Shown: positions 582 to 27,717 of the stretch, in pieces
How the letters are laid out: every line of letters starts with the position of its first letter
Position numbering within the stretch: position 1 is the stretch's first letter
From: a virus
Taxonomy: Duplodnaviria; Heunggongvirae; Uroviricota; Caudoviricetes
Direction: 5' to 3' (one strand)
IMG/VR virus record: IMGVR_UViG_2648501802_000001
Length of the DNA: 36,013 nucleotides
Notes under the pieces: model-generated
What the model was told of the DNA's origin: nothing
The model's database searches: none
The model's input: only the letters and a program-made list of their open reading frames with translations
Position numbers and translations under genes: made by a program

Positions 582-1595
582 TTACTCTACTGTGGACACT
601 GTGTGGACACTCTCGGCCTCAGTACCACCTCTTAGCGGATTAAGAGAAATGGCGTCCTGAAGGTACTCTGGCGCAAAATGAGCGTAAACCATAGTTTGTT
701 CAATCCGCGTGTGACCTAGTATCCGTTGTAGCGTGATAATACTTCCTCCATTAATCATGAAATGAGTGGCAAAGCTGTGCCTTAGTGCATGTGTGGCTTG
801 CCCCATTGGCAAATCCGGTTTTATTGCTTTCATTGTTCGTCTGAAGCGAGGGTAATCAGCATCAGGGAATAAAAAACCTCGTTTGTTATCCGCGATCATT
901 TTGGCAACAGCCTCTGAGATCGGGACGGTGCGTGGTTTGTTTGTTTTCGTTTTAACAAACGTGACGCGGTTATGGATGATATTTTCTGCTTTCAAACGAG
1001 CTGCTTCTCCCCAACGTGCTCCAGTACTCAGGCAAAGAATCGCAATCTTTTTATTGTCGCCGTCAAGAGCAGCAAGCAGTAAGGCAATTTCTTCCTGCGT
1101 GAGATAGCCTGTGTCTGGTTTTTCCTCCTTAAGCTTTTTTGTCCCTCTGATAGGGTGCTCACCAAAGAATAACTCCGCTTCAATCAGGGCTGTAAACATG
1201 CCGCTAATACATGTTAAATCACGATTGATACTCGAAGGTTTAATACCCTGACTTCTTCGGGTGGCGCAGTACTGGCTGATAAGCGATTTCGTAATTTGAA
1301 ATGCGCATGGGTCATTCGTTATTTTTGTGAAGATTTCAATTTTTCCAAGATTAGATTTCCCATGCTCTTCGTGTTTACCCTTTAAATCCCACCAGATCTG
1401 TGTCAGCTCCGACAGACGTCGCTTGTCTGTTGGTTTTGATAGCCATTCTTTATTGTGGTGGTTGTACAACGTGTATTTCTCGAAAGCGACAGCTTCGCTT
1501 TTCTTATCAAACTTCCTACGGATGCGTTTTCCATTACGTCCAGTAGGGCGGATGTCCACTTCATATCGACCATCATCGAGTTTTTTGATTGCCAT
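582..1595 (-). CDS. int: Tyrosine integrase (P2 Int-like)
   Basis: 337 aa starting MAIKKLDDGRYEVDIRPTGRNGKR; C-terminal HxxR...Y catalytic region (ATHALRHSFATHF...MVYAHF); directly adjacent to attL. Confidence 0.93.
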   Translation of the reverse strand: MAIKKLDDGRYEVDIRPTGRNGKRIRRKFDKKSEAVAFEKYTLYNHHNKEWLSKPTDKRRLSELTQIWWDLKGKHEEHGKSNLGKIEIFTKITNDPCAFQITKSLISQYCATRRSQGIKPSSINRDLTCISGMFTALIEAELFFGEHPIRGTKKLKEEKPDTGYLTQEEIALLLAALDGDNKKIAILCLSTGARWGEAARLKAENIIHNRVTFVKTKTNKPRTVPISEAVAKMIADNKRGFLFPDADYPRFRRTMKAIKPDLPMGQATHALRHSFATHFMINGGSIITLQRILGHTRIEQTMVYAHFAPEYLQDAISLNPLRGGTEAESVHTVSTVE

Positions 1596-3892: not shown

Positions 3893-4164
3893 GTATTCGT
3901 ATTGAAATTGGCGAACGTTATGTCGTTACCAGTGACAGCTTTCAGTTTATTCTCCACGAGAAAAAGAGAGCGGAAAGCGGTAAAAACGCCGGTCAGGAAT
4001 GGCTGGCGGTGGTTGGTTATTACCCGAAATTAAGCCAGCTCGTTTCCGGCCTGATGCATCACGATATTCTGACCGGAAGCGCAAAATCTTTTGCTGATTT
4101 AAACGCGCAGGTTGAGCAACTCAGCAGGCGTTGTTCAGAGGCTTTTGGCTCACATGGACGTTAA
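3889..4164 (+). CDS. Hypothetical early protein (P2 orf83 position)
   Basis: 91-aa ORF translationally coupled to neighbours. Confidence 0.55.
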   Translation: MSIRIEIGERYVVTSDSFQFILHEKKRAESGKNAGQEWLAVVGYYPKLSQLVSGLMHHDILTGSAKSFADLNAQVEQLSRRCSEAFGSHGR

Positions 4165-6427
4165 AGCCTCCGGGCGTTTTGTCCCTCCGTCAGCATTTGC
4201 CGCAGGCACCGGTAAGACGTTTACCGGTGCTTATGCATGGAACGCGCCACGCGAGGCCGTCGGGCGCGAAAGACCCCTTACACGTGACGAGATGCGTCAG
4301 GTGCAAGGTGTTTTATCCACGATTAACCGCCTGCCTTACTTTTTGCGTTCGCTGTTTACTTCACGCTATGACTACATCCGGCGCAATAAAAGCCCGGTGC
4401 ACGGGTTTTATTTCCTCACATCCACTTTTCAGCGTCGTTTATGGCCGCGCATTGAGCGCGTGAATCAGCGCCATGAAATGAACACCGACGCGTCGTTGCT
4501 GTTTCTGGCAGAGCGTGACCACTATGCGCGCCTGCCTGGAATGAATGACAAGGAGCTGAAAAAGTTTGCCGCCCGTATCTCATCGCAGCTTTTCATGATG
4601 TATGAGGAACTCTGCGATGCATGGGGTGATGCGCATGGTGAAAAAGAATCGCTGTTTACGGATGAGGCGCAGGCTCACCTCTATGGTCATGTTGCTGGCG
4701 CTGCACGTGCTTTCAATATTTCCCCGCTCTACTGGAAAAAATACCGTAAAGGACAGATGACCACGAGGCAGGCATATTCTGCCATTGCCCGTCTGTTTAA
4801 CGATGAGTGGTGGATTAGTCAGCTTAAAGGCCAGCGTATGCGCTGGCATGAGGCGTTACTGATTGCTGTCGGGGAGGTCAATAAAGACCGTTCTCCTTAT
4901 GCCAGTAAACATGCCATTCGTGATGTGCGTGCGCGCCGCCAGGCAAATCTGGAATTTCTTAAATCGTGTGACCTTGAAAACAGGGAAACCGGCGAGCGCA
5001 TCGACCTTATCAGTAAGGTGATGGGCAGTATTTCTAATCCTGAAATTCGCCGGATGGAGCTGATGAACACCATTGCCGGTATTGAGCGTTACGCCGCCGC
5101 AGAGGGTGATGTGGGGATGTTTATCACGCTGACCGCGCCGTCAAAGTATCACCCGACACGTCAGGTCGGAAAAGGCGAAAGTAAAACCGTTCAGCTTAAT
5201 CACGGCTGGAACGATGAGGCATTTAATCCAAAGGATGCGCAGCGTTATCTCTGCCGTATCTGGAGCCTGATGCGCACGGCATTCAAGGATAATGATTTAC
5301 AGGTCTACGGTTTGCGAGTCGTCGAGCCACACCACGACGGAACGCCGCACTGGCATATGATGCTTTTTTGTCATCCACGCCAGCGTAACCAGATTATCGA
5401 AATCATGCGTCGCTATGCGCTCAAAGAGGATGGCGACGAAAGAGGAGCCGCGCGAAACCGTTTTCAGGCAAAACACCTTAACCGGGGCGGTGCTGCGGGA
5501 TATATCGCGAAATACATTTCAAAAAACATCGACGGCTATGCACTGGATGGTCAGCTCGATAACGACACCGGCAGGCCGCTGAAAGACACTGCAGCGGCTG
5601 TTACCGCATGGGCGTCAACGTGGCGCATTCCGCAATTTAAAACAGTTGGCCTGCCGACAATGGGGGCTTACCGTGAACTACGCAAATTGCCTCGCGGCGT
5701 CAGCATTGCTGATGAGTTTGACGAGCGCGTCGAGGCTGCACGCGCCGCCGCAGACAGTGGTGATTTTGCGTTGTATATCAGCGCGCAGGGTGGGGCAAAT
5801 GTCCCGCGCGATTGTCAGACTGTCAGGGTCGCCCGTAGCCCGTCGGATGACGTTAACGAGTATGAGGAAGAAGTCGAGAGAGTGGTCGGCATTTACGCGC
5901 CGCATCTCGGCGCGCGTCATATTCATATCACCAGAACGACGGACTGGCGCATTGTGCCGAAAGTTCCGGTCGTGGAGCCTTTGACTTTAAAAAGCGGCAT
6001 CGCCGCGCCTCGGAGTCCTGTCAATAACTGTGGAAAACTCACCGGTGGTGATACTTCGTTACCGGCTCCCACACCTTCTGAGCACGCCGCAGCAGTGCTT
6101 AATCTGGTAGATGACGGTGTTATCGAATGGAATGACCAGGAGGTCGTGAGGGCGCTCAGAGGTGCATTAAAACACGGTCTGAGAAGACCAAACCGTCAGC
6201 AAAGAAACGGAAGCCCGTTAAAACCGCATGAAATAGCGCCATCGGCCAGACTGACCCGGTCGGAACGAATGCAAATTACCCGTATCCGCGTTGACCTTGC
6301 TCAGAACGGTATCAGGCCGCAGCGATGGGAGCTTGAGGCGCTGGCGCGTGGTGCAATTGTGAACTATGGCGCAAAAGAATTTCATTACCATGTTCAGAAG
6401 GCGTGGGAAGCATTTTCGAGGTGGTAA
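4154..6427 (+). CDS. A: Replication initiation protein A (rolling-circle HUH endonuclease)
   Basis: HUH motif (TPHWHMMLF) and tyrosine motif (YIAKYISKNIDGY). The track ORF starts at TTG 4112; the first ATG is 4154. Confidence 0.93.
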   Translation: MDVKASGRFVPPSAFAAGTGKTFTGAYAWNAPREAVGRERPLTRDEMRQVQGVLSTINRLPYFLRSLFTSRYDYIRRNKSPVHGFYFLTSTFQRRLWPRIERVNQRHEMNTDASLLFLAERDHYARLPGMNDKELKKFAARISSQLFMMYEELCDAWGDAHGEKESLFTDEAQAHLYGHVAGAARAFNISPLYWKKYRKGQMTTRQAYSAIARLFNDEWWISQLKGQRMRWHEALLIAVGEVNKDRSPYASKHAIRDVRARRQANLEFLKSCDLENRETGERIDLISKVMGSISNPEIRRMELMNTIAGIERYAAAEGDVGMFITLTAPSKYHPTRQVGKGESKTVQLNHGWNDEAFNPKDAQRYLCRIWSLMRTAFKDNDLQVYGLRVVEPHHDGTPHWHMMLFCHPRQRNQIIEIMRRYALKEDGDERGAARNRFQAKHLNRGGAAGYIAKYISKNIDGYALDGQLDNDTGRPLKDTAAAVTAWASTWRIPQFKTVGLPTMGAYRELRKLPRGVSIADEFDERVEAARAAADSGDFALYISAQGGANVPRDCQTVRVARSPSDDVNEYEEEVERVVGIYAPHLGARHIHITRTTDWRIVPKVPVVEPLTLKSGIAAPRSPVNNCGKLTGGDTSLPAPTPSEHAAAVLNLVDDGVIEWNDQEVVRALRGALKHGLRRPNRQQRNGSPLKPHEIAPSARLTRSERMQITRIRVDLAQNGIRPQRWELEALARGAIVNYGAKEFHYHVQKAWEAFSRW

Positions 6428-6537: not shown

Positions 6538-7458
6538 ATGGGCTTGGCGATGTATAACGATCCTTATAGTGACCCAAAAGCGTGGGAATCATATTTCAAA
6601 AATATTGTTTGGCTACATTATAAGCCTGCTAACTGTTGTGACTTGCCAGATGAGCATGGAGGCGACTTTGGGCTGGAGTGTTACACTCTGAGTGGTCATG
6701 TTTTTCAGTGTTACTTGCCTGAGCAGTCGAGTGATATTGATAAGCTTTATAAAGCGCAACAAAAAAAGATTTATACTGATATAAAAAAGTTTTCTCAGGA
6801 TAACATTAAAGAATTAGAGGAGCTTTTTGGCACATTAAAAATTAGCCGCTGGATATTAGCTACACCATATAATAAATCGGCGAAATTAAGTCAATATTGC
6901 ACAAAAAAATCATTAAAAGTAAGAGAGTTAGGGATTTCTTACGTTGCTGATGATTTTCAAATAGTAGTGCAAACAGATCGAAATTATATAGAAGAAGCGT
7001 TCTTTCTTCGCAAAAATAACTATCAATTAAGCTTTAATATAAATGATGCGACGGCTGAGAATGCTGCTAACTTTATTAGTGAAAATACATCTTTTTTAGA
7101 TAAGCTAAATTTAAAATTACCTAAGATAAATGATGATGTATCTAGGCAGGGTTTATATAGAGAGTTTTTAATACAAAAATATCTTGATTATCAAAACTTG
7201 CTGGATGCTTTGAAGAGAGACTGGGTTGATATCTATGAAATTATCTATAACTGTGTTCAACATAGAGAACGTAATTTGGTAGGTCTCTTTCTTCTTACTT
7301 CATCAGATGCGAAACCATCAGATATAATGAAAGATGAAATCGCTTTGTTAAAGAAATGTATTGAAGAGGAAGTTAGTACGCTTAAACAGGCTGACTTGGA
7401 TAAGATAACATGGGGAGTTATTTCTGATTGGCTTATAAGATGCCCTTTAGATTTTTAG
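6538..7458 (+). CDS. Unknown 306-aa protein, first gene of hotspot operon (candidate effector, LmuA-like position)
   Basis: AT-rich ORF immediately after A; 1-nt gap to the next gene; no motif I can assign confidently. Confidence 0.7.
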   Translation: MGLAMYNDPYSDPKAWESYFKNIVWLHYKPANCCDLPDEHGGDFGLECYTLSGHVFQCYLPEQSSDIDKLYKAQQKKIYTDIKKFSQDNIKELEELFGTLKISRWILATPYNKSAKLSQYCTKKSLKVRELGISYVADDFQIVVQTDRNYIEEAFFLRKNNYQLSFNINDATAENAANFISENTSFLDKLNLKLPKINDDVSRQGLYREFLIQKYLDYQNLLDALKRDWVDIYEIIYNCVQHRERNLVGLFLLTSSDAKPSDIMKDEIALLKKCIEEEVSTLKQADLDKITWGVISDWLIRCPLDF

Positions 7459-7459
7459 A

Positions 7460-7936
7460 ATGGAAAAGCAAATGCATATAACGATAGATGAAATAATAGG
7501 AAGGCCGTTTACGTTTAATAAACGACCTGAACATTTGCCATGTGATATGAGACCATTGTGGCGTTGCAGTTTGTTGCTGATAATATTCCTTGTCACAGGG
7601 AGAGCTGGTTGCTGTTCTTTAAAAAAACTTCATTTAATTAATTGGATGTTAAAGTCAGAGAATAATGAAGCAATGTTTGAATTCTGGCTTTTAAACAAAG
7701 AAGGTTTAAAGCCTGAAGTAAGATTGGATCCAACTTTAGATAGAGCAATACAGCTATTATTAGCAGAGGATTTTATTTTGAGAAATGAACGAGCGTTCAA
7801 AATAAATGAAAAGGGGCTTAAGGTCGCTGAGAAATTGCTTTCTCTTGATGTGTTCAAAGAAGAAAGGTTGGTGCTAAATAAACATAAGGCTGGACTGTCC
7901 GAAACTAACATTAATAAAATATTTCAGGTGGGTTAA
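7460..7936 (+). CDS. Small 158-aa protein with winged-helix-like C-terminus (LmuC/kleisin-like position)
   Basis: Translationally coupled on both sides (1-nt gaps); AT-rich. Confidence 0.65.
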   Translation: MEKQMHITIDEIIGRPFTFNKRPEHLPCDMRPLWRCSLLLIIFLVTGRAGCCSLKKLHLINWMLKSENNEAMFEFWLLNKEGLKPEVRLDPTLDRAIQLLLAEDFILRNERAFKINEKGLKVAEKLLSLDVFKEERLVLNKHKAGLSETNINKIFQVG

Positions 7937-7937
7937 T

Positions 7938-9959
7938 ATGTCGTTGGAAATTATTTCATTGGAGTTAGTAGCAAATACTTCGGATGGGCGTTATGGTGTT
8001 AGTATACCTTTTTCAAATGGCTTGTTTTTATTAAGAGTTGAGAATTCTCATGGTAAATCAACTTGCATGAATGGGATTGCATATGCACTTGGGATGGAAA
8101 AGGCATTAGGTGTCGGTTCTGGAAAAATCCCATTCCCTCCATCTTTGACTAGAGCACTAACGACAAAAGATAATGTTGAAGTTAGTGTAATATCATCTTA
8201 TGTTTTGCTAAAAATAAAGAATCATAAGGGAATAGAAGCATCTTTGAAAAGGAATATTATCGGTCACGATAATAATAATGTTATTTATATAGATGAGAAG
8301 AATAATGTAAAAAGTAAGAGTGGTACTTATTTTTTACATAGAGAGGGCGATACTGAAAGGGAACGTGGTTTCTATAAGTGGTTAGCTGATTTTATAGGTT
8401 GGAGTTTGCCAAATGTTCCAAACCATAATGGGAAGGACACTATTCTTTATCCATCCGTACTTTTCCCTGCATGGTATGTTGAGCAAAAAAAAGGATGGTC
8501 GTCAATTATGGCGACTGTACCAACACAATTTGGAATTAAAGAGCCAAAGAAAAGAGCTCTAGAATTTTTAATGTCTCTTGATGTTAATGATAATATTTTA
8601 TTGCGTAGTTCGTTAAGAAATGAACTTGATATTATTTATCATGATTGGAAGTTAATTAAACACAATGCAGAAGTTATTGCTTCTAAATTGTCGTCAGTTG
8701 TCACAGGGATTCCTGAACAACCAGTGGCAAAATTTGATCATTATAAGATAGATTTGATTATTAAAAATGGTAGCGTCGTTAGATCTATTGTTGATGTTCG
8801 TAATGAACTGGAAAAAGAGTTGCAAGAAATTAAGTTTGACACTCTTGGTGAGCAAGAAGAACAAACTTTACAATTATCAGTGGTTAAGTTATTAGGTCAA
8901 AAAAATGATGAAATTAACTCTCTGGAATTAAAGATTAAAGAGATTTGTGAGCATAGAAGTTATATTCAATATCAAATTCAGGCGACCAAAAACAGATTGT
9001 ATAATCTGTTGGAAGATAAAAGGAAGTATGAAGATTTAAAGAAAATATCATCTTCGGATGCGTATAAGTCAACAGATTTAATGTCAAATATTTGTCCGAC
9101 TTGTGGTGCAAGTTATAATGATAATTTGCTAAGTTTTTCATCGCAAGAAAATCTGATGACATATGAAGATAGTTTGAACTTTATTAAAGAGCAAGTAAAA
9201 GCATTTGAGTTTGTTCTGTCGGATAGTGAAAAGCAATTAAAGCTTAAAGATGTTGAGAGGAGTGATTTAGAGGGGGAAATAGCCAAGATTAGAGTTGATA
9301 TTAATGCATTAAGGGAGTCAAAATATCCCTCAATGGTTGTTCAGGAGGAGTTTCTGAGACGTAAAATAAACATTGAGAATAAAATTAATGCCATTAACGA
9401 TGGCATTAAAAGTATATTGGACATTAGACTGGAGTTGGATTCATTACACCGTAGATATAAAAAGCTTATCGCGAAAAGAAAAGGGTTGCCAGATAATTTC
9501 TTGTCGCGTAATGATGCCGATAAGTTAAAATTTCTTAATAAAGAAGTCGTTGCACGATTAGAAAAATATAATTTTACAAGTTTTGATTCTAAACTTGTGT
9601 CAATATCAGAAGATAATTACTTACCTACTAGGGAAGGATATGATATAGGTTTTGACACATCAGCTAGTGATGGAATAAGAATCATTTGGGGTTATTTAAT
9701 AAGTTTATTTGTTGTTGGTTCTAAATTTCAAACAAATCACCCTGGATTGATTGTGTTTGATGAGCCTCGTCAACAAGAAGCAAATAAAGTAAGTTTTGCC
9801 GAGTTACTTAAAGATGCTGCAGAAACAACAAAAGGACAAGGGCAGATCATTTTTGCTACATCAGAAGATGAAAATGTCTTAAAAGAGGCATTAGAAGGGT
9901 ATGACTATACAATGATATCCTTTGATAAGAACAATGGGAAATTGTTGAGGAAATTATAA
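7938..9959 (+). CDS. SMC/Rad50-like ABC ATPase with coiled coil and CxxC zinc hook (LmuB-like)
   Basis: Walker A VENSHGKST (aa 35-42); long charged heptad-rich middle with CPTCG (aa 386-390); C-terminal Walker B GLIVFDEP. Confidence 0.8.
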   Translation: MSLEIISLELVANTSDGRYGVSIPFSNGLFLLRVENSHGKSTCMNGIAYALGMEKALGVGSGKIPFPPSLTRALTTKDNVEVSVISSYVLLKIKNHKGIEASLKRNIIGHDNNNVIYIDEKNNVKSKSGTYFLHREGDTERERGFYKWLADFIGWSLPNVPNHNGKDTILYPSVLFPAWYVEQKKGWSSIMATVPTQFGIKEPKKRALEFLMSLDVNDNILLRSSLRNELDIIYHDWKLIKHNAEVIASKLSSVVTGIPEQPVAKFDHYKIDLIIKNGSVVRSIVDVRNELEKELQEIKFDTLGEQEEQTLQLSVVKLLGQKNDEINSLELKIKEICEHRSYIQYQIQATKNRLYNLLEDKRKYEDLKKISSSDAYKSTDLMSNICPTCGASYNDNLLSFSSQENLMTYEDSLNFIKEQVKAFEFVLSDSEKQLKLKDVERSDLEGEIAKIRVDINALRESKYPSMVVQEEFLRRKINIENKINAINDGIKSILDIRLELDSLHRRYKKLIAKRKGLPDNFLSRNDADKLKFLNKEVVARLEKYNFTSFDSKLVSISEDNYLPTREGYDIGFDTSASDGIRIIWGYLISLFVVGSKFQTNHPGLIVFDEPRQQEANKVSFAELLKDAAETTKGQGQIIFATSEDENVLKEALEGYDYTMISFDKNNGKLLRKL

Positions 9960-10270: not shown

Positions 10271-11305
10271 TCAGCCGTTGTCAGTGTCCAGTGAGTAGTT
10301 TTTAAAGCGGATGACCTCCTGACCGAGCCAGCCGTTTATCTCGCGGATCCTGTCCTGTAACGGGATAAGCTCATTGCGGACAAAGACCTTTGCCACTTTC
10401 TCTATATCACCCAGCGATCCGACGTTCTCCGGCTTGCCACCCATCAACTGAAAGGGGATGCGGTGCGCGTCCAGCAGGTCAGCGGCGCTGGCTTTTTTGA
10501 TATTAAAAAAATCGTCCTTCGTCGCCACTTCACTGAGGGGGATAATTTTAATGCCGTCGGCTTTCCCCTGTGGGGCATAGAGAAACAGATTTTTAAAGTT
10601 ATTGCGGCCTTTCGACTTAACCATGTTTTCGCGTAGCATTTCGATATCGTTGCGATCCTGCACGGCATCAGTGACGTACATGATGTATCCGGCATGTGCG
10701 CCATTTTCGTAATACTTGCGGCGGAACAGCGTGGCCGACTCATTCAGCCAGGCAGAATTAAGGGCGCTGAGATATTCCGGCAGACCGTACAGCTCCTGAT
10801 TAATATCCGGCTCCAGCAGGTGAAACACGGAGCCGGGCGCGAAGGCTGTCGGCTCGTTGAAGGACGGCACCCACCAGTAAACATCCTCTTCCACACCACG
10901 GCGGGTATATTTTGCCGGTGAGGTTTCCAGTCTGATGACCTTACCGGTGGTACTGTAACGCTTTTCCAGAAACGCATTGCCGAACACCAGAAAATCCAGC
11001 ACAAAGCGGCTGAAATCCTGCTGGGAAAGCCACGGATGCGGAATAAACGTTGAAGCCAGAATATTGCGTTTGACGTAAATCGGTGAGCTGTGATGCACGG
11101 CAGTACGCAGGCTTTTTGCCAGACCGGTAAAGCTGACCGGCGGCTCATACCATCTGCCGTTACTGATACATTCGACGTAATCCAGAATGTCACGGCGGTC
11201 GAGCACCGGAACCGGCTCACCAAAGGTGAATGCCTCCATTTTCGGGGCGCTGGCGGCCATTGTTTTTACCGCAGGTTGCGGTGTTTTCCCTTTTTTCTTG
11301 CTCAT
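10271..11305 (-). CDS. Q: Portal protein
   Basis: 344 aa, P2 gpQ-like; start overlaps the P stop (ATGA). Confidence 0.9.
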   Translation of the reverse strand: MSKKKGKTPQPAVKTMAASAPKMEAFTFGEPVPVLDRRDILDYVECISNGRWYEPPVSFTGLAKSLRTAVHHSSPIYVKRNILASTFIPHPWLSQQDFSRFVLDFLVFGNAFLEKRYSTTGKVIRLETSPAKYTRRGVEEDVYWWVPSFNEPTAFAPGSVFHLLEPDINQELYGLPEYLSALNSAWLNESATLFRRKYYENGAHAGYIMYVTDAVQDRNDIEMLRENMVKSKGRNNFKNLFLYAPQGKADGIKIIPLSEVATKDDFFNIKKASAADLLDAHRIPFQLMGGKPENVGSLGDIEKVAKVFVRNELIPLQDRIREINGWLGQEVIRFKNYSLDTDNG

Positions 11306-19236: not shown

Positions 19237-19776
19237 GTGACATGTAAAAAGAATGAAGGTGATGTTGTAAAGAAAATTGAACTGGTGCTGAAAACAATCG
19301 CGCGGACGGATTCTTATTTAAATTCAGCCAATACTAAATCAACGATATTACTAAGCTTAGCTTCAGCTGTAATTGTTGCTATTATAGCAAATTTTGACAA
19401 AGTTATATGTCTGGTAGATGTGGATAGTGATAGGATTTTTCTCTCTCTTTTATTGATTGTAATAGTTGGGTTATTGGTGATCTCTTTGTTATTTTCTCTA
19501 AAAGGTGTTACTCCAAATATCTCTAAGAGTGATAAGGAGAATACTTTTTCATTTGTTGATATATCAAGTTATTATAGTAGTCTTGATTGCTATTCTAGTA
19601 GTTTTAAGTCAGTGAGTGATCTGGAGTTGTTGGAGCAGTTAATTGCATTGAATTATACTCTTTCCAGAGCATTAACTAGCAAATATGAGATGCAAATCAT
19701 AGCCATTGACTTTATAAAAATGGCTGTTTATGTGCTTTGTTTTTTAATATATGTGGTTGCTTTATCTAATTGGTGA
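19237..19776 (+). CDS. Small membrane protein with three predicted TM helices (candidate effector)
   Basis: 179 aa; GTG start with GGAAGG RBS; hydrophobic stretches ILLSLASAVIVAIIANF, IFLSLLLIVIVGLLVISLLFSL and IIAIDFIKMAVYVLCFLIYVVAL; very AT-rich. Confidence 0.7.
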   Translation: MTCKKNEGDVVKKIELVLKTIARTDSYLNSANTKSTILLSLASAVIVAIIANFDKVICLVDVDSDRIFLSLLLIVIVGLLVISLLFSLKGVTPNISKSDKENTFSFVDISSYYSSLDCYSSSFKSVSDLELLEQLIALNYTLSRALTSKYEMQIIAIDFIKMAVYVLCFLIYVVALSNW

Positions 19777-19786
19777 AGGTTTTTGT

Positions 19787-21139
19787 ATGTCCATAAAGAG
19801 TATTTATTTAGTATTAGATGAAAGGCTGGAAGAGATAATTTCAAAATCAAAATCGCAATCAGTCCATGATGCTATATTTGAATCAGTGGATAATACACAG
19901 TTGGCCACGGAGAGCTTAAGTAAATCTTCTGGTTTCGTAAGAAGTTCTATTTCATTGAAAAAAGATGTAGGTGGAGCTGATGTTCAAAGTTATCAGGTGA
20001 AAGATATTGTTAGAAATAAATTTGGCAAGCACGGTCCACTCATGACAAGTTTTGGATGTCATCCGGACTTTAATAAAATGGATGATGGTGAGGTGAGAAA
20101 TGGTTATTCCATTACCATGTTTATGGATATAATCGGCTCAACTAAACTTGGGGTTGTTTTTCCACCAGAAATAGTATTTAGAATCAAAAATGATATTATA
20201 AGATGTGCGATCGAAACAGTGAATGCATTTGATGGTCACGTCCATAGAATTATGGGTGATGCAGTAATGGCATTTTTCCGAAGTAATGACCGATATAAAA
20301 ACAATAAGATCGCAGACAGTGCAATTGATGCAATAAACTGTGCCGTTGTTTTGATTGAAATGTTCAAGGGGGTTGTTATACCTAAATTGAGTGATTTGGG
20401 AGTTGACGAAAACTTAGGAATAAGAATTGGTCTTGACTATGGCCCTCACGAGGAAGTGGTGTGGTCAAAATATGGCTATATGGAAAGTCATGAAGTGACT
20501 GCGACATCTTTTTTTGTTGATGTTGCGGCAAAACTTCAGCAAAAAGCTCCTAAAAACTCAATTATGATAGGTGCAAGTTTTGTAGAGTTATTAGGCCTTG
20601 ATGATGTTCAATTAAAACATAAAATTAACAGAAACAATGGCGTAGAACACAAGGAATTGTATTTAACCCCAAATTATAAAGATGCTTCAGGCAAACCAAT
20701 AAATTACAGACAATATGTATTTGATAACGAACGTTATTGTAATTTGCTGCCTATAAATGATGAGGGGGGTAAACTCATTGTAAAAGCAACGCTTAAGAAG
20801 AGTGAAAATGATGTGTCTGATGATGAGTATATTTGTTGTTCTCGAATGATAAAAAAGGGTATGGGTATCTCATTTAAAGGGTACTATTACTCACAAGAAC
20901 AGTACTCTAATCCCAGGTTCAAATTTCGTGTCGAAAATACAGGTCCTGATGCAGGTAATGTTGATAATAAGGGTAATCATGAGTCATATGAGGTAGCAAG
21001 GTACACTGGCGAGCGTTATTTTGCTAAGCATTGGGAAGATTGTCATTACAAAGGACTGCATTATATGTTTGTATCTTTTTGGAATGGGGATCAATTAATA
21101 GAAAGGGAGAGGTGTTTTTCAGTTTTTATTAACGATTAA
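19787..21139 (+). CDS. Class III nucleotidyl cyclase-like protein with uncharacterised N- and C-terminal extensions
   Basis: Motifs FMDIIGST (aa ~112) and HRIMGDAVMAFF (aa ~154), with the two Asp residues about 44 residues apart; ATG 19787 with GGTGAAGG RBS (the track ORF starts at 19751); AT-rich. Confidence 0.75.
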   Translation: MSIKSIYLVLDERLEEIISKSKSQSVHDAIFESVDNTQLATESLSKSSGFVRSSISLKKDVGGADVQSYQVKDIVRNKFGKHGPLMTSFGCHPDFNKMDDGEVRNGYSITMFMDIIGSTKLGVVFPPEIVFRIKNDIIRCAIETVNAFDGHVHRIMGDAVMAFFRSNDRYKNNKIADSAIDAINCAVVLIEMFKGVVIPKLSDLGVDENLGIRIGLDYGPHEEVVWSKYGYMESHEVTATSFFVDVAAKLQQKAPKNSIMIGASFVELLGLDDVQLKHKINRNNGVEHKELYLTPNYKDASGKPINYRQYVFDNERYCNLLPINDEGGKLIVKATLKKSENDVSDDEYICCSRMIKKGMGISFKGYYYSQEQYSNPRFKFRVENTGPDAGNVDNKGNHESYEVARYTGERYFAKHWEDCHYKGLHYMFVSFWNGDQLIERERCFSVFIND

Positions 21140-21239: not shown

Positions 21240-21875
21240 ATGAACACTCTCGCAAATATTCAGGAACTCGCGCGCGCACTGCGCAACATGATTCGCACCG
21301 GCATTATCATCGAAACCGACCTTAACGCCGGTCGCTGCCGTGTGCAGACCGGCGGCATGTGCACCGACTGGCTTCAGTGGCTGACCTGTCGTGCCGGGCG
21401 TTCGCGCACATGGTGGGCACCTTCCGTGGGGGAGCAGGTGCTGATTCTGGCCGTGGGCGGTGAACTTGACACGGCGTTTGTTCTGCCGGGGATTTATTCC
21501 GGCGATAACCCCGCGCCGTCTGCGTCGGCGGATGCCCTGCATATCCGTTTCCCTGACGGGGCGGTGATTGAGTATGAACCCGAAACCAGTGCACTCACGG
21601 TAAGCGGAATTAAAACGGCCAGCGTGACGGCTTCTGATTCTGTTACTGCCACGGTGCCGGTGGTCACGGTGAAAGCATCAACCCGCGTCACCCTGGACAC
21701 ACCGGAGGTGGTCTGCACCAACAGGCTGATTACCGGCACGCTGGAAGTGCAGAAGGGCGGGACGATGCGCGGCAACATTGAACACACCGGCGGTGAACTC
21801 TCATCAAACGGTAAGGTACTGCATACCCATAAACACCCCGGCGACAGCGGCGGCACAACCGGGAGTCCTCTATGA
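21240..21875 (+). CDS. V: Baseplate spike protein
   Basis: 211 aa, P2 gpV-like. Confidence 0.9.
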   Translation: MNTLANIQELARALRNMIRTGIIIETDLNAGRCRVQTGGMCTDWLQWLTCRAGRSRTWWAPSVGEQVLILAVGGELDTAFVLPGIYSGDNPAPSASADALHIRFPDGAVIEYEPETSALTVSGIKTASVTASDSVTATVPVVTVKASTRVTLDTPEVVCTNRLITGTLEVQKGGTMRGNIEHTGGELSSNGKVLHTHKHPGDSGGTTGSPL

Positions 21876-22219
21876 CAGCGCGTTATCTCGGAATGAATCG
21901 CAGTGATGGCCTGACTGTCACTGACCTTGAGCATATCAGCCAGAGTATCGGCGATATCCTGCGCACACCGGTCGGCTCACGGGTGATGCGTCGTGATTAC
22001 GGCTCGTTGCTGGAGTCAATGATTGACCAGCCGCAGACCCCGGCGCTTGAGTTGCAGATTAAGGTCGCCTGTTACATGGCGGTGCTGAAATGGGAACCCC
22101 GCGTCACCCTGTCATCCGTCACCACTGAGCGCAGTTTTGACGGGCGAATGACGGTCACGTTAACCGGCCAGCACAACGACACCGGCCAGCCACTTTCGTT
22201 AACCATCCCTGTGAGTTGA
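21872..22219 (+). CDS. W: Baseplate wedge protein
   Basis: 115 aa, P2 gpW-like. Confidence 0.88.
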   Translation: MTARYLGMNRSDGLTVTDLEHISQSIGDILRTPVGSRVMRRDYGSLLESMIDQPQTPALELQIKVACYMAVLKWEPRVTLSSVTTERSFDGRMTVTLTGQHNDTGQPLSLTIPVS

Positions 22220-22223
22220 AACC

Positions 22224-23132
22224 ATGCCGATTATCGACCTGAACCAGCTACCCGCACCGGATGTGGTCGAGGAGCTGGACTTTGAAACCATTCTTGCCGA
22301 ACGCAAGGCGACACTGATTTCCCTTTACCCGGAAGACCAGCAGGAGGCGGTCGCCCGTACCCTGACGCTGGAATCCGAGCCTCTCGTCAAACTGCTGGAG
22401 GAAAATGCTTATCGTGAGCTTATCTGGCGTCAGCGTGTGAATGAGGCCGCACGGGCGGTGATGCTGGCCTGTGCCGCCGGTAATGACCTTGATGTGATTG
22501 GTGCCAATTACAACACCACGCGCCTGATTATCACCCCGGCAGATGATTCGACTATCCCGCCGACACCGGCAGTGATGGAGTCTGACACCGATTATCGTCT
22601 GCGTATTCAGCAGGCGTTTGAAGGTTTAAGCGTCGCCGGGTCGGTGGGGGCCTATCAGTATCATGGTCGAAGTGCCGACGGGCGTGTCGCGGATATCTCT
22701 GTCACCAGTCCTTCTCCGGCCTGCGTCACCATCTCTGTGCTGTCACGTGAAAATAACGGTGTCGCATCCGAAGACCTGCTGGCGGTGGTGCGTAACGCCC
22801 TTAATGGCGAGGACGTCAGGCCGGTGGCCGACCGCGTGACCGTGCAGTCTGCCGCCATCGTTGAATACCAGATAAACGCCACGCTTTACCTTTACCCTGG
22901 TCCCGAAAGCGAACCCATCCGCGCCGCCGCCGTGAAAAAACTGGAAGCGTACGTCACGGCACAGCACCGGCTGGGGCGCGACATCCGTCTGTCTGCCATT
23001 TATGCCGCTTTGCATGTGGAAGGCGTGCAGCGTGTCGAACTGGCTGCACCGCTGGCCGATATCGTGCTTAACAGCACGCAGGCGTCTTTCTGCACCGAAT
23101 ACCGCGTCGTGACCGGAGGCTCGGATGAGTGA
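22224..23132 (+). CDS. J: Baseplate assembly protein
   Basis: 302 aa, P2 gpJ-like. Confidence 0.88.
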   Translation: MPIIDLNQLPAPDVVEELDFETILAERKATLISLYPEDQQEAVARTLTLESEPLVKLLEENAYRELIWRQRVNEAARAVMLACAAGNDLDVIGANYNTTRLIITPADDSTIPPTPAVMESDTDYRLRIQQAFEGLSVAGSVGAYQYHGRSADGRVADISVTSPSPACVTISVLSRENNGVASEDLLAVVRNALNGEDVRPVADRVTVQSAAIVEYQINATLYLYPGPESEPIRAAAVKKLEAYVTAQHRLGRDIRLSAIYAALHVEGVQRVELAAPLADIVLNSTQASFCTEYRVVTGGSDE

Positions 23133-23736
23133 TTCGCGCCTGCTGCCGACCGGCTCATCACCGCTTGAAGTCGCCGCCGCAAAAGCCTGTGCGGAAATTG
23201 AAAAAACGCCGGTCAGTATTCGTGAACTGTGGAACCCGGATACCTGCCAGGCAAATCTGCTGCCGTGGCTGGCGTGGTCATTTTCGGTTGACCGCTGGGA
23301 TGATAAGTGGCCGGAAGCGACAAAACGCGCTGTTATCCGCGATGCGTATTTCATTCACTGTCATAAAGGCACTATAGGTGCAATCCGGCGTGTGGTGGAG
23401 CCGCTCGGCTATCTGATTGAGGTGAGGGAGTGGTGGCAGCTCAACGAGGAGCCGGGGACGTTCCGTATCGTTGTTGGCGTGCTTGAGCAGGGTATTACCG
23501 AAGAAATGTATCAGGAGCTGGAGCGCCTCGTTGCTGATGCAAAACCGGCGAGCCGCCATCTGACGGGACTGGCTATCAGTTTAAGTACAACCGGCAACAT
23601 TTTTGCCGGTGCGGGATGCTATCACGGCGACGCCCTGACGGTTTATCCCTACACCCCGGAGGCCATTATTGTCGGAGGGGATTATTTCCCGGCCTCGGCC
23701 ATTCATTTAATTGATAACCTGAGAGTAAACGCATGA
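23125..23736 (+). CDS. I: Baseplate protein
   Basis: 203 aa, in the gpI position. Confidence 0.8.
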   Translation: MSDSRLLPTGSSPLEVAAAKACAEIEKTPVSIRELWNPDTCQANLLPWLAWSFSVDRWDDKWPEATKRAVIRDAYFIHCHKGTIGAIRRVVEPLGYLIEVREWWQLNEEPGTFRIVVGVLEQGITEEMYQELERLVADAKPASRHLTGLAISLSTTGNIFAGAGCYHGDALTVYPYTPEAIIVGGDYFPASAIHLIDNLRVNA

Positions 23737-24932
23737 CAGTGAAATACTACGCCATTCTGACTAATCAGGGCGCAGCACGGCTGGCTAACGCGACGATGCT
23801 CGGCAGTAAGCTGAATCTGACGCAAATGGCCGTTGGTGATGCGAATGGTGTCTTGCCGACACCAGACCCGGCACAGACAAAACTGATTAACCAGAAACGC
23901 ATCGCGCCGCTGAATCTTCTGAGTGTTGACCCGAACAACCAGAGCCAGATTATTGCGGAGCAAATCATCCCTGAGAACGAGGGCGGATTCTGGATCCGTG
24001 AGATTGGGCTTTATGATGATGAAGGCGTACTCATTGCGGTGGCGAACTGCCCGGAAACGTACAAACCGCAGTTGCAGGAAGGCAGTGGTCGTACCCAGAC
24101 TATCCGCATGATTCTGGTTGTCACGAATACCGAAGCTATCACGCTGAAAATCGACCCGTCGGTGGTACTGGCGACCCGTAAATACGTGGATGATGAAGTC
24201 CTGGAATTAAAGCTGTATGTGGATGACCAGATGAGAAACCACATTGCCGCACAGGATCCTCATACCCAGTATGCGCAGAAACATAATCCGACATTTACCG
24301 GAGAACCAAAAGCGCCGACGCCTGCCGCAGGAAATAACACCACGCGGATTGCGACCACTGAGTTTGTTCAGGCCGCTATTACCGCTCTGATTAACGGTGC
24401 GCCAGCCACACTGGACACACTGAAAGAAATTGCCGCGGCCATTAACAATGACCCGAAATTCAGCACCACCATTAACAATGCGCTGTCAGGTAAGCAGCCA
24501 CTGGATGAGACGCTGACTCATTTGAGTGGAAAGGATGTAGCTGGTCTTCTCGCATACCTTGGTTTGAGAGAAGCGGCAAAACGGGATGTGGGGACAGGGG
24601 AAAATCAGATACCGGACATGGCCTCTTTTGCCAGTGGTGATGGATGGATGAAATTACCCAACGGGAAAATCCTGCAATATGGTCGTGGTGCGGTTACGCC
24701 GACATTATCGACGCAAACAATGAGAATTACATTCAGCATCCCTTTCCCCAAAAAAGCGGACTGCGCCATGCTTACTCATTCTGGTGATGGCGGTGCGCCT
24801 TTAGGCGCTGGGCGAGGGTTCGTGATGACTGCAGAAGGCCCAACGTTAACCGGCTTTAATTCTGCTTACAGAACGTCATCAACCAGCGACACGGTATCGA
24901 TGAATTACAGTTGGTGGGCTGTTGGTGAGTAA
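23733..24932 (+). CDS. H: Tail fibre protein with exchangeable C-terminus
   Basis: 399 aa with conserved P2 gpH N-terminus (MTVKYYAILTNQGAARLANA...); an inversion crossover site lies inside the gene at about 24556. Confidence 0.85.
   Translation: MTVKYYAILTNQGAARLANATMLGSKLNLTQMAVGDANGVLPTPDPAQTKLINQKRIAPLNLLSVDPNNQSQIIAEQIIPENEGGFWIREIGLYDDEGVLIAVANCPETYKPQLQEGSGRTQTIRMILVVTNTEAITLKIDPSVVLATRKYVDDEVLELKLYVDDQMRNHIAAQDPHTQYAQKHNPTFTGEPKAPTPAAGNNTTRIATTEFVQAAITALINGAPATLDTLKEIAAAINNDPKFSTTINNALSGKQPLDETLTHLSGKDVAGLLAYLGLREAAKRDVGTGENQIPDMASFASGDGWMKLPNGKILQYGRGAVTPTLSTQTMRITFSIPFPKKADCAMLTHSGDGGAPLGAGRGFVMTAEGPTLTGFNSAYRTSSTSDTVSMNYSWWAVGE
24556..24572. repeat. Left inversion crossover site (hix/gix-like)
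   Basis: ACCTTGGTTTGAGAGAA; its inverted partner is at 26456-26472 with 2 mismatches; core resembles the hix ACCTTGGTTT. Confidence 0.6.
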
Positions 24933-24943
24933 TTTTATTCAGG

Positions 24944-25396
24944 GTGATTTATATGAACGAATATGTTTATAGCGCAAGGCATAATGCTTTTTTCCCTGTG
25001 GATATGATTGATAAATATAAATCAGAGGGATGGGATTTATCAGACGCTAAGGAAGTAAATCAAAATATTATCAGTGAGTTTATGGCTGAACCGCCACAAG
25101 GAAAAATCCGTATTGCCGGAGATGATGGGCTGCCTGCGTGGGCAGATATTCCTCCACCCACGCATGAAGAGCTTATTGAAATTACTGAATCAGAAAGACA
25201 GCTACTAATTAACCAGGCCAACGAATACATGAACAGTAAGCAATGGCCCGGTAAAGCCGCTATTGGTCGTCTGAAAGGTGAGGAACTGGCGCAATATAAT
25301 TTGTGGCTGGATTATCTGGATGCACTGGAGCTGGTTGATACCTCCAGTGCACCAGATATTGAATGGCCTACGCCTCCGGCAGTTCAGGCCAGATGA
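24944..25396 (+). CDS. Tail fibre assembly chaperone (gpG/Tfa-like)
   Basis: 150 aa immediately after H; conserved Tfa-type C-terminus. Confidence 0.75.
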   Translation: MIYMNEYVYSARHNAFFPVDMIDKYKSEGWDLSDAKEVNQNIISEFMAEPPQGKIRIAGDDGLPAWADIPPPTHEELIEITESERQLLINQANEYMNSKQWPGKAAIGRLKGEELAQYNLWLDYLDALELVDTSSAPDIEWPTPPAVQAR

Positions 25397-25970
25397 CATC
25401 CGGCGCGGTGCTGGTATCTGTTGCCGTCACCGCGTCAATGTAATCCAGCACAGCGTTAAGCCGGGTTGTTTCTGCCTGCGTCAGTTTACGTCCGGCCTGC
25501 AATTTCAGTTGAATCAGACTGATGGAAGCCATTGCAGTATCAATCAGCGACTGGCGCTGTGCTTCTGCTGCATCTACTGCGGCGCTATGCTGTGCCTCGG
25601 TATCCGTCACCCATTTCTCACCATCCCATTTATCATATGGCGTTAATGGGGCGATAGTGGTTGTATTTTCAGGGTAATCACCCGGAGCGGTGATTTCTTT
25701 TGATTCTCCTGTTTCGGTGCTATAGACCGTTTCACCGCGATGGTCTGGCACATATTCCCATGAGTTAAAATCTGCAGAACGGCAGATTGCATAACCAGCC
25801 TTATGTGTGCCAGGGGCATCTAAACAGGAACATGCCGGAATGCCGACACCAACGGCAAGATATTCATTTGAAGTGGAAATATATTCCCGTGTTTCACCAT
25901 CATAGTTATAAACGGTAACATCCCCTGCCTTTGTTGCAATGAGCTCACTATTTAATATTGCTTTATGCAT
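25368..25970 (-). CDS. Alternative tail fibre assembly chaperone (Tfa') in the invertible segment
   Basis: 200 aa, convergent with the forward Tfa; start overlaps the stop of the alternative fibre segment (ATGA). Confidence 0.7.
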   Translation of the reverse strand: MHKAILNSELIATKAGDVTVYNYDGETREYISTSNEYLAVGVGIPACSCLDAPGTHKAGYAICRSADFNSWEYVPDHRGETVYSTETGESKEITAPGDYPENTTTIAPLTPYDKWDGEKWVTDTEAQHSAAVDAAEAQRQSLIDTAMASISLIQLKLQAGRKLTQAETTRLNAVLDYIDAVTATDTSTAPDVIWPELPEA

Positions 25971-26464
25971 CAGGCTGCCCTCACGATATAGTTAAATGCA
26001 ATATTACGCGGACGCGTTTCTGAGGCTGCGGCACCTAAACCAGCCACTGATTGTTTATATGTTTTAAAGGTTCCATAATCCGGTGCTGGTAATCCAGCAT
26101 CGTTTGTGTTTCCTCTTTTGATAATGTCAGTGCCACTATTTACCCAGCTTTCATCAAAATAGAAATTAATCGTTGCATCAGTCACAATCGTGGATCTTGA
26201 CGGTAATCCATGAGCATGATCCTCCGTTGCATACCCCTGAATACTTAAAATAGAGCGACCTGTATCAATCCCCCGCCCGTCATCCCAGCCACGAATAAAC
26301 TCACCACGTAAATCAGGCAATTTATTTGTCGGGTAAGCCTTTGCCAGTTCCGGGTATTCTTCAGCCGAAAAAGCAGCCCCGTTGCATTTCAGCCAGCCTG
26401 TTGGCGGCGTAGCTGAAGGCCAAGGAACTGGTATGCCAACAGGCAACGCAGAACCTTCTCCCAA
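25970..26464 (-). CDS. Promoterless alternative tail fibre C-terminal segment (H')
   Basis: Fibre-tip-like sequence on the minus strand with no ATG start (the track M is a TTG); reading frame stays open up to the right crossover site. Confidence 0.6.
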   Translation of the reverse strand: MGEGSALPVGIPVPWPSATPPTGWLKCNGAAFSAEEYPELAKAYPTNKLPDLRGEFIRGWDDGRGIDTGRSILSIQGYATEDHAHGLPSRSTIVTDATINFYFDESWVNSGTDIIKRGNTNDAGLPAPDYGTFKTYKQSVAGLGAAASETRPRNIAFNYIVRAA

Positions 26465-26472
26465 ACCAACGT
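26456..26472. repeat. Right inversion crossover site (hix/gix-like)
   Basis: TTCTCCCAAACCAACGT, inverted repeat of 24556-24572. Confidence 0.6.
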
Positions 26473-26607
26473 TTTATGGAATCGGTTAAATATGATGTTG
26501 AAAGAAGGGAGTGTCCTAGTATTGATTGTTAGATAAAAATGGAAAGTGCTGATTGTAACGGTATATTTTAAGATGGTAACACCAAATGGTGCTACCATCT
26601 TTATTAG

Positions 26608-26925
26608 TTATCTGTTCCTTCTGAGGATTCCGCTACTCCCTTGTGTTGTAGGGTTTAATTTTTTCCAATAATGATAACCTTGTGATGTAATCCTTAGAGA
26701 GGCAGTATCTACACTCCATCCATCAATACTTTCAGGAGAACCATCGAAGATTACCTTTCCTGTAAGATACCCATCGTCATGCAGAAAGGCGATATATCCA
26801 TAAACTTCTTTTAAATCACCAATTTCATTGACTAGGCGTTCCCACGCTTGAACAGTGATTCTCTCTGGATAGGCTTCGACAAAATATTTCAGTGTGGTAG
26901 TTTTTTTATTGGTATCGATGTTCAT
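26608..26925 (-). CDS. Orphan 105-aa hypothetical protein in the Z/fun hotspot position
   Basis: ATG with AAGGA RBS; AT-rich; divergent from the invertase gene. Confidence 0.6.
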   Translation of the reverse strand: MNIDTNKKTTTLKYFVEAYPERITVQAWERLVNEIGDLKEVYGYIAFLHDDGYLTGKVIFDGSPESIDGWSVDTASLRITSQGYHYWKKLNPTTQGSSGILRRNR

Positions 26926-27123
26926 CAGATTTTCCTTTTATTGAGGTCAACCTATCTTACCATACTTATTTGTTTCACATGGGAATGCTAAGTGGGCTAT
27001 GTATCCACTATCAGTAAATATTCTTATCCAGCAAGATTACTGTAACTGAGAGCTCCATAGCCTTGTCCGCTTGTACATATATAGATAATTCTGTGTCATT
27101 ATTCTGTTTTTATAGGGATTTTT

Positions 27124-27717
27124 ATGCGTATAGGTTATGTTCGTGTATCAACAAATGACCAGAACACGGAATTGCAGCGTAACGCGCTCGAGTGCGCAGG
27201 ATGTGAGCTGATTTTTGAGGATAAAATCAGCGGCACGAAGTCCGACCGACCGGGGCTGAAAAAACTGCTCAGAACATTATCAGCAGGTGACACTCTGGTA
27301 GTCTGGAAGCTGGACAGGCTGGGGCGTAGTATGCGGCATCTGGTCATTCTGGTTGAGGAACTGCGCGAACGCGGCATTAATTTTCGCAGCCTGACAGATG
27401 CTATTGATACCAGCACGCCGATGGGGCGTTTTTTCTTTCATGTGATGGGTGCCCTGGCTGAAATGGAACGAGAACTCATTGTCGAACGGACTCGGGCCGG
27501 GCTGGAAGCGGCCAGAGCCAAAGGTCGTATTGGTGGCAGACGTCCTAAACTCACCACGAGTGAGTGGGAGCAGGTCGGGCGTTTGCTGGCTGCAGGGGAG
27601 TCACGTCAACGCGTGGCACTGATTTTTGATATTGGCCTGTCCACGCTCTATAAAAAATTTCCCTCATCAGCGATAAAGAATAAATTGTGTCATCCCTTAG
27701 CCAACCGGGACAAATAG
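27124..27717 (+). CDS. Serine DNA invertase (Hin/Gin/Pin/Cin family)
   Basis: MRIGYVRVSTNDQ... with catalytic Ser region; LVVWKLDRLGRS; C-terminal HTH. Confidence 0.9.
   Translation: MRIGYVRVSTNDQNTELQRNALECAGCELIFEDKISGTKSDRPGLKKLLRTLSAGDTLVVWKLDRLGRSMRHLVILVEELRERGINFRSLTDAIDTSTPMGRFFFHVMGALAEMERELIVERTRAGLEAARAKGRIGGRRPKLTTSEWEQVGRLLAAGESRQRVALIFDIGLSTLYKKFPSSAIKNKLCHPLANRDK

Follow-up and report, generated by a model that had tools for sequence, protein, structure and literature searches.

A single-gene cargo cassette beside the invertible tail-fibre segment of a P2-like prophage encodes a predicted winged-helix protein

The window analysed here, a stretch of 36,013 nucleotides, is as a whole a P2-like prophage. 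Between its invertible tail-fibre segment and its DNA invertase, in silico analysis delimited a 647-bp AT-rich cassette with the anatomy of a moron, built around one minus-strand gene for a protein of 105 aa. Sequence comparison indicates that this gene is under selection, its product is predicted to adopt a winged-helix fold, and its homologues occupy moron slots in other prophages. We tentatively favour a moron expressed during lysogeny, whose product would bind a host or phage target and act in exclusion or anti-defence in phage conflict.

Position of the cassette within the prophage

The features that locate the cassette are listed here by window coordinates.

582..1595: integrase gene
21240-23736: baseplate genes V/W/J/I
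23733..24932: tail-fibre gene H
24548..24573: left crossover site TTCTCGCATACCTTGGTTTGAGAGAA, inside H; the inversion breakpoint overlaps it at 24559-24573
26455..26481: right crossover site TTCCATAAAACGTTGGTTTGGGAGAA (26481-26456, minus strand), Din-family hix/gix-like; the inversion breakpoint overlaps it at 26455-26472
26475..27121: cargo cassette, 647 bp, 36% GC; the sequence aligns with pro483 up to 26474 and again from 27122
27124..27717, plus strand: serine DNA invertase (Resolvase N-terminal domain and HTH_7), divergent from the 105-aa gene
From 27777 on: sheath, tube and tape measure genes
Right end of the window: host U32 peptidase gene

The cassette was delimited by comparison with phage pro483, in which only 60 bp separate the right crossover site from the start of the invertase, compared with 647 bp in the window. 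The flanks of the 647-bp insertion are 85-93% identical to pro483, and the two invertases are identical at 190/197 aa (96%). Given 647 bp where pro483 has 60, the gene forms a separate insert with the crossover site on one side and the invertase on the other. The first-pass annotation had placed the gene in the Z/fun position and regarded that slot as a site for cargo. Both proposals hold, as fun(Z) of P2 is a minus-strand gene situated between G and FI, and foreign cargo in the window has taken the place of the 60 bp of pro483. That annotation did not describe the placement between the right crossover site and the invertase.

The fibre segment is an invertible segment of the Mu/P1/e14 type. 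An E. coli ST2747 prophage that is 99.9% identical to the window carries 24559-26472 (1.9 kb; positions 4102-6015 of locus L001) in the opposite orientation, direct evidence of an inversion by the invertase switch in the lineage of this phage. Most E. coli matches to our query start at query base 56, corresponding to window position 26455. The possibility that the 105-aa gene belongs to the invertible segment was ruled out by the inversion breakpoints.

In e14 (pin-mcrA) and in Mu (gin-com/mom), too, the fibre module has a Din-family invertase at its distal end with a conflict-related gene as immediate neighbour. However, mcrA and mom code for enzymes and are found beyond the invertase, whereas the cargo described here sits between the crossover site and the invertase. 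This placement is an unusual variant of the Mu/P1/e14 layout.

The cassette DNA has also replaced the pro483-type 60 bp upstream of the invertase (region 27000-27121). As the native upstream sequence is gone, the invertase promoter must sit in the foreign AT-rich sequence, and the invertase may be expressed differently here than in phages of the pro483 type.

The Z/fun locus of P2 is cited as a defence and cargo hotspot (PMC13586616), and the 105-aa gene resembles P2 fun(Z) in several respects. Both follow the fibre assembly gene and precede the sheath gene FI, and both are AT-rich foreign cargo on the antisense strand. The V-operon terminator of P2 lies 8 nt from the fun(Z) stop codon, and a hairpin likewise abuts the 3' end of the gene in the window. 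The loci differ in that the window has an invertase and an invertible fibre segment. The products differ as well: P2 Fun(Z) is a lysogenic-conversion protein of 528 aa that blocks T5 and makes its host sensitive to FUdR, whereas the window protein is far shorter and has no similarity to it detectable by BLASTP (E = 0.13 over 35 residues).

The gene and its expression signals

Four features were assigned within the cassette.

26570..26601: hairpin (stem of 14 bp), separated by 6 nt from the stop codon of the gene; dG -22.5 kcal/mol, z = -6.65
26608..26925 (stop included), minus strand: 105-aa coding sequence with an ATG start, supported by the ORF list, comparison and predicted fold
26933..26937, minus strand: Shine-Dalgarno sequence AAGGA, 7 nt before the ATG
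26954..26962, minus strand: extended -10 element TGGTAAGAT, assigned in silico and conserved in 5/5 close loci

The base composition of the ORF (38% GC) departs from that of the whole window (50% GC). When the cassette was subjected to mononucleotide shuffling, an ATG-initiated ORF of at least 105 codons arose in only 17/2000 shuffles. A stronger argument for the reality of the gene than this count is selection across five diverged loci (in E. coli, in Citrobacter and on metagenome contigs), in all of which the frame is intact. Values of dN/dS across these loci were 0.12-0.34, with dS saturated between the deeper branches, and 44 residues are invariant across six aligned sequences of the family. 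On these comparisons, the ORF is a genuine gene under selection.

The sequence upstream of the gene was aligned for the five loci. AAAAGGA is invariant in all five, and TATG(G/A)TAA(A/G)AT is likewise common to all, while the remainder is poorly conserved. The extended -10 element, TGnTAAAAT, is found at -37/-34 from the ATG in 5/5 of the diverged loci, and its position predicts a transcription start at approximately 26947. Similar upstream elements are present in Pantoea (TGGTATAAT) and in Kosakonia relatives (TGATAAATT). The putative promoter is of the extended -10 type with no recognisable -35, and a scan of the intergenic region with the sigma-70 consensus found no site.

These results agree with what had been proposed from the sequence at first reading, namely a minus-strand ORF of 105 aa with a good RBS, and a promoter-like, AT-rich region of roughly 200 bp shared divergently with the invertase. 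The ORF starts with ATG at the coordinates given above and AAGGA is suitably spaced from it. The intergenic region measures 198 bp at 34% GC, and its promoter-like character is borne out in silico by the conserved extended -10 element.

We also inspected the 198-bp region for regulatory sites. No LexA box was seen by eye and no convincing inverted-repeat operator was found. A TGTGA motif was considered as a class I/II CRP site and rejected, as it lies too near the -10. Just upstream of the extended -10 (approximately 26975-26990, minus strand), the E. coli and Citrobacter loci share a block, CATTCCCATGTGA, which is partly retained (CCA..CC.A) in more distant loci. From its conservation, this block could be an operator or a further promoter element. 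A self-sufficient putative promoter that faces against the late operons is expected of a gene made in the lysogen, and such expression is probable on the basis of this arrangement.

The hairpin downstream of the gene has a U-rich tail on the plus strand only; the strand of the gene itself has no U-tract. We therefore read the hairpin as probably the terminator of the fibre (V-type) operon, and it is possibly bidirectional. In a homologous locus (L017), the stem carries one compensatory change from C-G to U-A. A terminator scan reported no canonical terminator at the hairpin, and a search of Rfam returned far-sub-threshold matches alone, overlapping the 3' end of the ORF and the hairpin.

Homologues and predicted fold

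Among 5426 complete E. coli genomes, the gene is present in 22, always on the chromosome, as a single copy and at least 98.3% identical. The identical protein was found on 717 contigs, Salmonella has close variants of it, and all database records of the protein bear the source name 'hypothetical protein'. A word-indexed search of 5.8 billion proteins yielded 5 clusters. An exhaustive HMM search of 1.84 billion representatives yielded 14 matches, three of them spurious (long and of low complexity). Profile iterations reached a plateau at approximately 20 clusters, all from Enterobacterales, and two further profile searches found no domain fusions. When plasmids were searched with tblastn, one real distant homologue was found, on a Kosakonia conjugative plasmid, where its neighbours were uninformative. 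The same search of 50,697 phage records gave one weak, unrelated match (E = 0.4), to a Synechococcus phage tail fibre.

The genomic contexts of the homologues fall into recurring positions, in all of which the gene is solitary and runs antisense to late genes. In Citrobacter, homologues with 76% and 67% identity lie directly after, and convergent with, the tail-fibre assembly gene, in phages of two tail types. In locus L016, which has no invertase, the homologue is flanked directly by tfa, the fibre assembly gene, and by the sheath gene, and in L017 it adjoins an invertible segment, as in the window. Distant homologues in Cronobacter, Lonsdalea, Pantoea and IMG/VR contigs stand alone and antisense, with the lysis cassette on one side and terminase genes or other moron genes on the other. 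The fibre-distal and lysis-terminase positions are the two classic moron slots of tailed prophages.

The moron concept is reportedly that of Juhala et al. 2000. Classical morons include bor of lambda, at the lysis-cos junction, and lom, in the tail region, both of which encode envelope proteins. Like the cassette of the 105-aa gene, classical morons consist of a single extra gene of lower GC content with its own promoter and hairpin. They too separate genes that are neighbours in related phages, are oriented against late transcription and use the same two types of slot. In the window, the extra DNA separates features that are adjacent in pro483, the promoter and hairpin were assigned in silico, and the GC content is 36% against 50%. 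The product differs from the envelope proteins Bor and Lom in being, by prediction, a cytoplasmic winged-helix protein.

Some of the homologous loci showed further peculiarities. In Citrobacter loci L005-L007 (7040-7750), a Peptidase_S24 gene and a dinI homologue precede the homologue of the 105-aa gene. One strain (L006, 6152-7707) carries a HipA_2 and DUF3037 pair inserted between dinI and the homologue, which makes the Citrobacter fibre-distal region itself a variable cargo island. A separate predicted protein of 95 aa (P0008) begins with the N-terminal 52 residues of a Din-type invertase and continues with residues ~27-68 of an orphan of the P0004 type, with a shared 'AWK/VWK' at the junction; a rearranged locus or a chimera of the assembly is the probable origin.

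Scans of the 105-aa protein against Pfam (at E <= 10) and NCBIfam gave no match, and a scan of PADLOC-DB v2 gave 0 families at E <= 10, so the initial statement that no domain was recognisable stands for these three collections. Searches of the PDB by sequence with two profiles returned nothing significant. Against PHROGs, the window protein itself gave E = 0.095 and 0.18 only, the latter to phrog_3983, which has no assigned function. However, 17/17 family members matched phrog_3983 at E <= 1 (best 8.8e-11), and the family is probably included in it on this sequence evidence. Two members weakly matched phrog_8008, 'DNA binding protein'.

Seven of the 17 relatives matched the Pfam family YjcQ (PF09639) co-linearly and below threshold (best E 0.0047); rescanned singly, relatives scored 12.7-16 bits, compared with a gathering threshold of 23.3 bits. 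YjcQ and DUF2513 (PF10711) are families of small winged-helix proteins from phages and prophage-like elements, and no functional information on either was found in the literature. The window protein has no match to YjcQ in Pfam and none of its relatives reaches the cut-off, which places it, by sequence, outside formal membership of any curated family. The first-pass description of the gene as an orphan was thus nearly true, but the approximately 20 clusters and the weak links to YjcQ and phrog_3983 do exist.

An AlphaFold model made with a 17-sequence alignment reached a pLDDT of 81.5 and a pTM of 0.71, compared with a pLDDT of 50 with a six-sequence alignment. It comprises H1 (5-18), H2 (25-35), H3 (38-50), a beta wing, H4 (81-90) and a disordered tail (95-103). 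The predicted winged-helix domain thus spans residues ~5-90 and is followed by a flexible tail ending in SGILRRNR. This model matches the fold of YjcQ, a winged helix-turn-helix of ~100 aa with a C-terminal helix, and in a search of viral folds the best matches of low rmsd were named 'YjcQ protein' (TM 0.62-0.64). Foldseek against the PDB listed single-domain PadR, RTP and SSV1 F-93; MarR and CggR are also among the closest folds. These are dimeric regulators that bind double-stranded DNA, several of them solved with DNA. In the model, fold, size and a C-terminal helix after the wing are shared with PadR-s2, MarR, RTP and F-93, but sequence identity is 10-18% and there is no match at the sequence level. 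By structural modelling, the protein is therefore a divergent YjcQ-like winged-helix protein. The homology and structure search suggested at the outset produced a predicted winged helix, and no match to a structural phage protein.

No signal peptide, transmembrane segment or catalytic motif was found in the sequence. The family is acidic (pI 4.5-5.7), with a core pI of 5.2 and a tail pI of 12 in the window protein. Helix 3, usually the recognition helix, has the sequence LKEVYGYIAFLHD; conservation in it concerns Gly, aromatic and Asp residues, and no basic or polar residue in it is conserved across the family. In both its acidity and this feature of the 'recognition' helix, the family differs from regulators of the PadR/MarR type. 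P20, L48, W70 and G83 are invariant, and R78 in the wing is nearly so.

In several deep branches, the C-terminus consists of a Gly/Ser linker and then G-x-(I/L)-R-x-R-R, as in SGILRRNR, SGLIRRERRY, SGWIRR, GGNIRRR, SGWILRTRRK and GGWISRSRRS. In the window, the C-terminal codons at 26611-26634 encode this Arg-rich tail, and it is present in relatives P0010, P0011, P0014, P0016, L023 and L024; other branches end in LPFSP or RAAAIL instead. Judged by its sequence, the motif may serve in docking or resemble a degron.

A role as a tail-fibre chaperone or structural protein was ruled out by the strand, the fold and the homologues at lysis-terminase junctions.

Proposed function and alternatives

The preferred reading starts from a self-contained moron cassette (promoter, RBS, one gene and hairpin) that would have been acquired horizontally and inserted between the invertible fibre segment and the invertase, the equivalent of the P2 Z/fun slot. 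An extended -10 sigma-70 promoter would drive the gene antisense to the late operons, and the product would probably be present in the lysogen. This product is predicted to be small, cytoplasmic and acidic, a YjcQ-like winged helix with a C-terminal helix, a Gly/Ser linker and an Arg-rich tail, and would most likely act as a non-enzymatic, stoichiometric binder. Its acidic, aromatic-rich winged-helix face and Arg-rich tail would dock on a target (protein or nucleic acid) that belongs to the host or to an incoming phage, and the outcome would be a lysogenic-conversion phenotype in phage-phage or phage-host conflict.

We infer both binding rather than catalysis and the role in conflict. A stoichiometric binder is favoured over a classical basic, operator-binding repressor by the acidity of the protein, the non-basic helix 3 and the Arg-rich tail; acidity as a clue to mechanism is suggestive, not decisive. 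The rarity of the gene (22/5426 E. coli genomes) implies that any benefit would be conditional. The sequence itself does not compel one to assume an unexpected mechanism. Anti-phage systems are known to be harboured by P2-like prophages (PMC9122126, PMC13586616), and small serine recombinases have been reported beside defence genes (PMC13552941). As the protein has neither similarity to Fun(Z) nor a match in PADLOC, the parallel with conflict genes is one of location: the gene is found where they are found.

A more far-reaching proposal, which we regard as unlikely in full, is that these proteins form an uncharacterised family of single-gene conflict factors that dock through the Arg tail. Their portable cassette would hop between moron slots and, in the window, would have taken over the control region of the invertase, with coupled expression as a possible consequence.

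An AT-rich single-gene moron in a recognised P2 hotspot is in itself known already. The family is, however, new to every curated family and defence catalogue searched and is restricted to prophage moron slots, and the cassette is a clean, minimal (647 bp) and readily testable unit. If a phenotype exists, the protein would be a new small exclusion or anti-defence factor or a regulator, and would give the first functional handle on the widespread YjcQ/DUF2513-like winged-helix proteins of phages. If there is none, it would be one more hypothetical moron.

The competing explanation that survives best, a strong alternative although we consider it somewhat unlikely, is that the gene encodes an ordinary transcription factor, a small dimeric winged-helix protein of the PadR-s2, MarR or RTP kind. 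Through operators in double-stranded DNA, this factor would control its own gene, genes of the host or those of other prophages. DNA-binding regulators of this type are indeed the best fold matches, and the H1-H2-H3-wing-H4 topology of the model is that of single-domain PadR with its dimerisation helix. The nearly invariant R78 of the wing, the CATTCCCATGTGA block as a possible operator upstream of the -10, and the weak matches of two members to phrog_8008 point in the same direction. However, the family is acidic, the window protein included (core pI 5.2), helix 3 in LKEVYGYIAFLHD and its variants offers no conserved basic or polar residues for readout, and the 198-bp region lacks a convincing inverted-repeat operator.

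It appears improbable that the protein is instead an accessory regulator of the adjoining invertase, and hence of fibre switching, acting through the shared divergent region. With the native 60 bp replaced, invertase expression depends on cassette DNA, and a divergent arrangement of gene and invertase is seen in the window, in L017 and in 22/22 of the E. coli genomes inspected. However, close homologues occur where there is no invertase at all (L016, L005-L010), and distant ones lie at lysis-terminase junctions. Conversely, approximately 500 E. coli genomes match the query in part, at the 5' end of the invertase or at the fibre end, and do not have the gene, nor does pro483 with its 96% identical invertase. 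Inversion is evident within the phage lineage, but the gene is not required for that.

Very doubtful in our estimate is an antirepressor that binds a prophage repressor, in the manner of Gifsy GfoA/GftA or the larger Tum of phage 186. A small, acidic, non-enzymatic protein would suit this role. The Citrobacter homologue, approximately 250 bp downstream of the dinI homologue and near the Peptidase_S24 gene, recalls the dinI-antirepressor operons that have been described (PMC3121763). Against this, dinI is a neighbour only in the Citrobacter loci and is found in neither the window nor L016, the homologues have a constitutive-looking promoter of their own, and no LexA box was visible in the 198 bp of the window. 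The tblastn search of 50,697 phage records detected no similarity to Gifsy-type antirepressors (GfoA/GftA/FsoA) and gave nothing beyond the weak, unrelated match described above.

A spurious ORF or decaying, functionless remnant, as rarity, AT-richness and the lack of an annotated domain might suggest, is scarcely tenable, since this reading is effectively refuted by the selection analysis (low dN/dS at saturated dS between branches, 44 invariant residues) and is further opposed by the conserved RBS and promoter element, the confident fold prediction and the identical protein on 717 contigs.

Two other regions of the prophage also carry cargo or candidate cargo. Among the late genes just before V, two overlapping plus-strand ORFs at 19237-21139 encode a 179-aa protein with PycTM, a Pycsar effector domain, and a 462-aa protein with Guanylate_cyc and an AGS_C sensor domain; from these domain assignments, the region is a Pycsar-like cyclic-nucleotide defence cassette. 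The ST2747 prophage carries a cyclase gene in the equivalent slot. At 6538-9959, three co-directional plus-strand ORFs (306, 158 and 673 aa) have no Pfam match at E <= 0.001. They adjoin a portal-like gene (10271..11305, minus strand) at the old/tin-type hotspot of P2 near cos, and are a candidate for an uncharacterised defence system.
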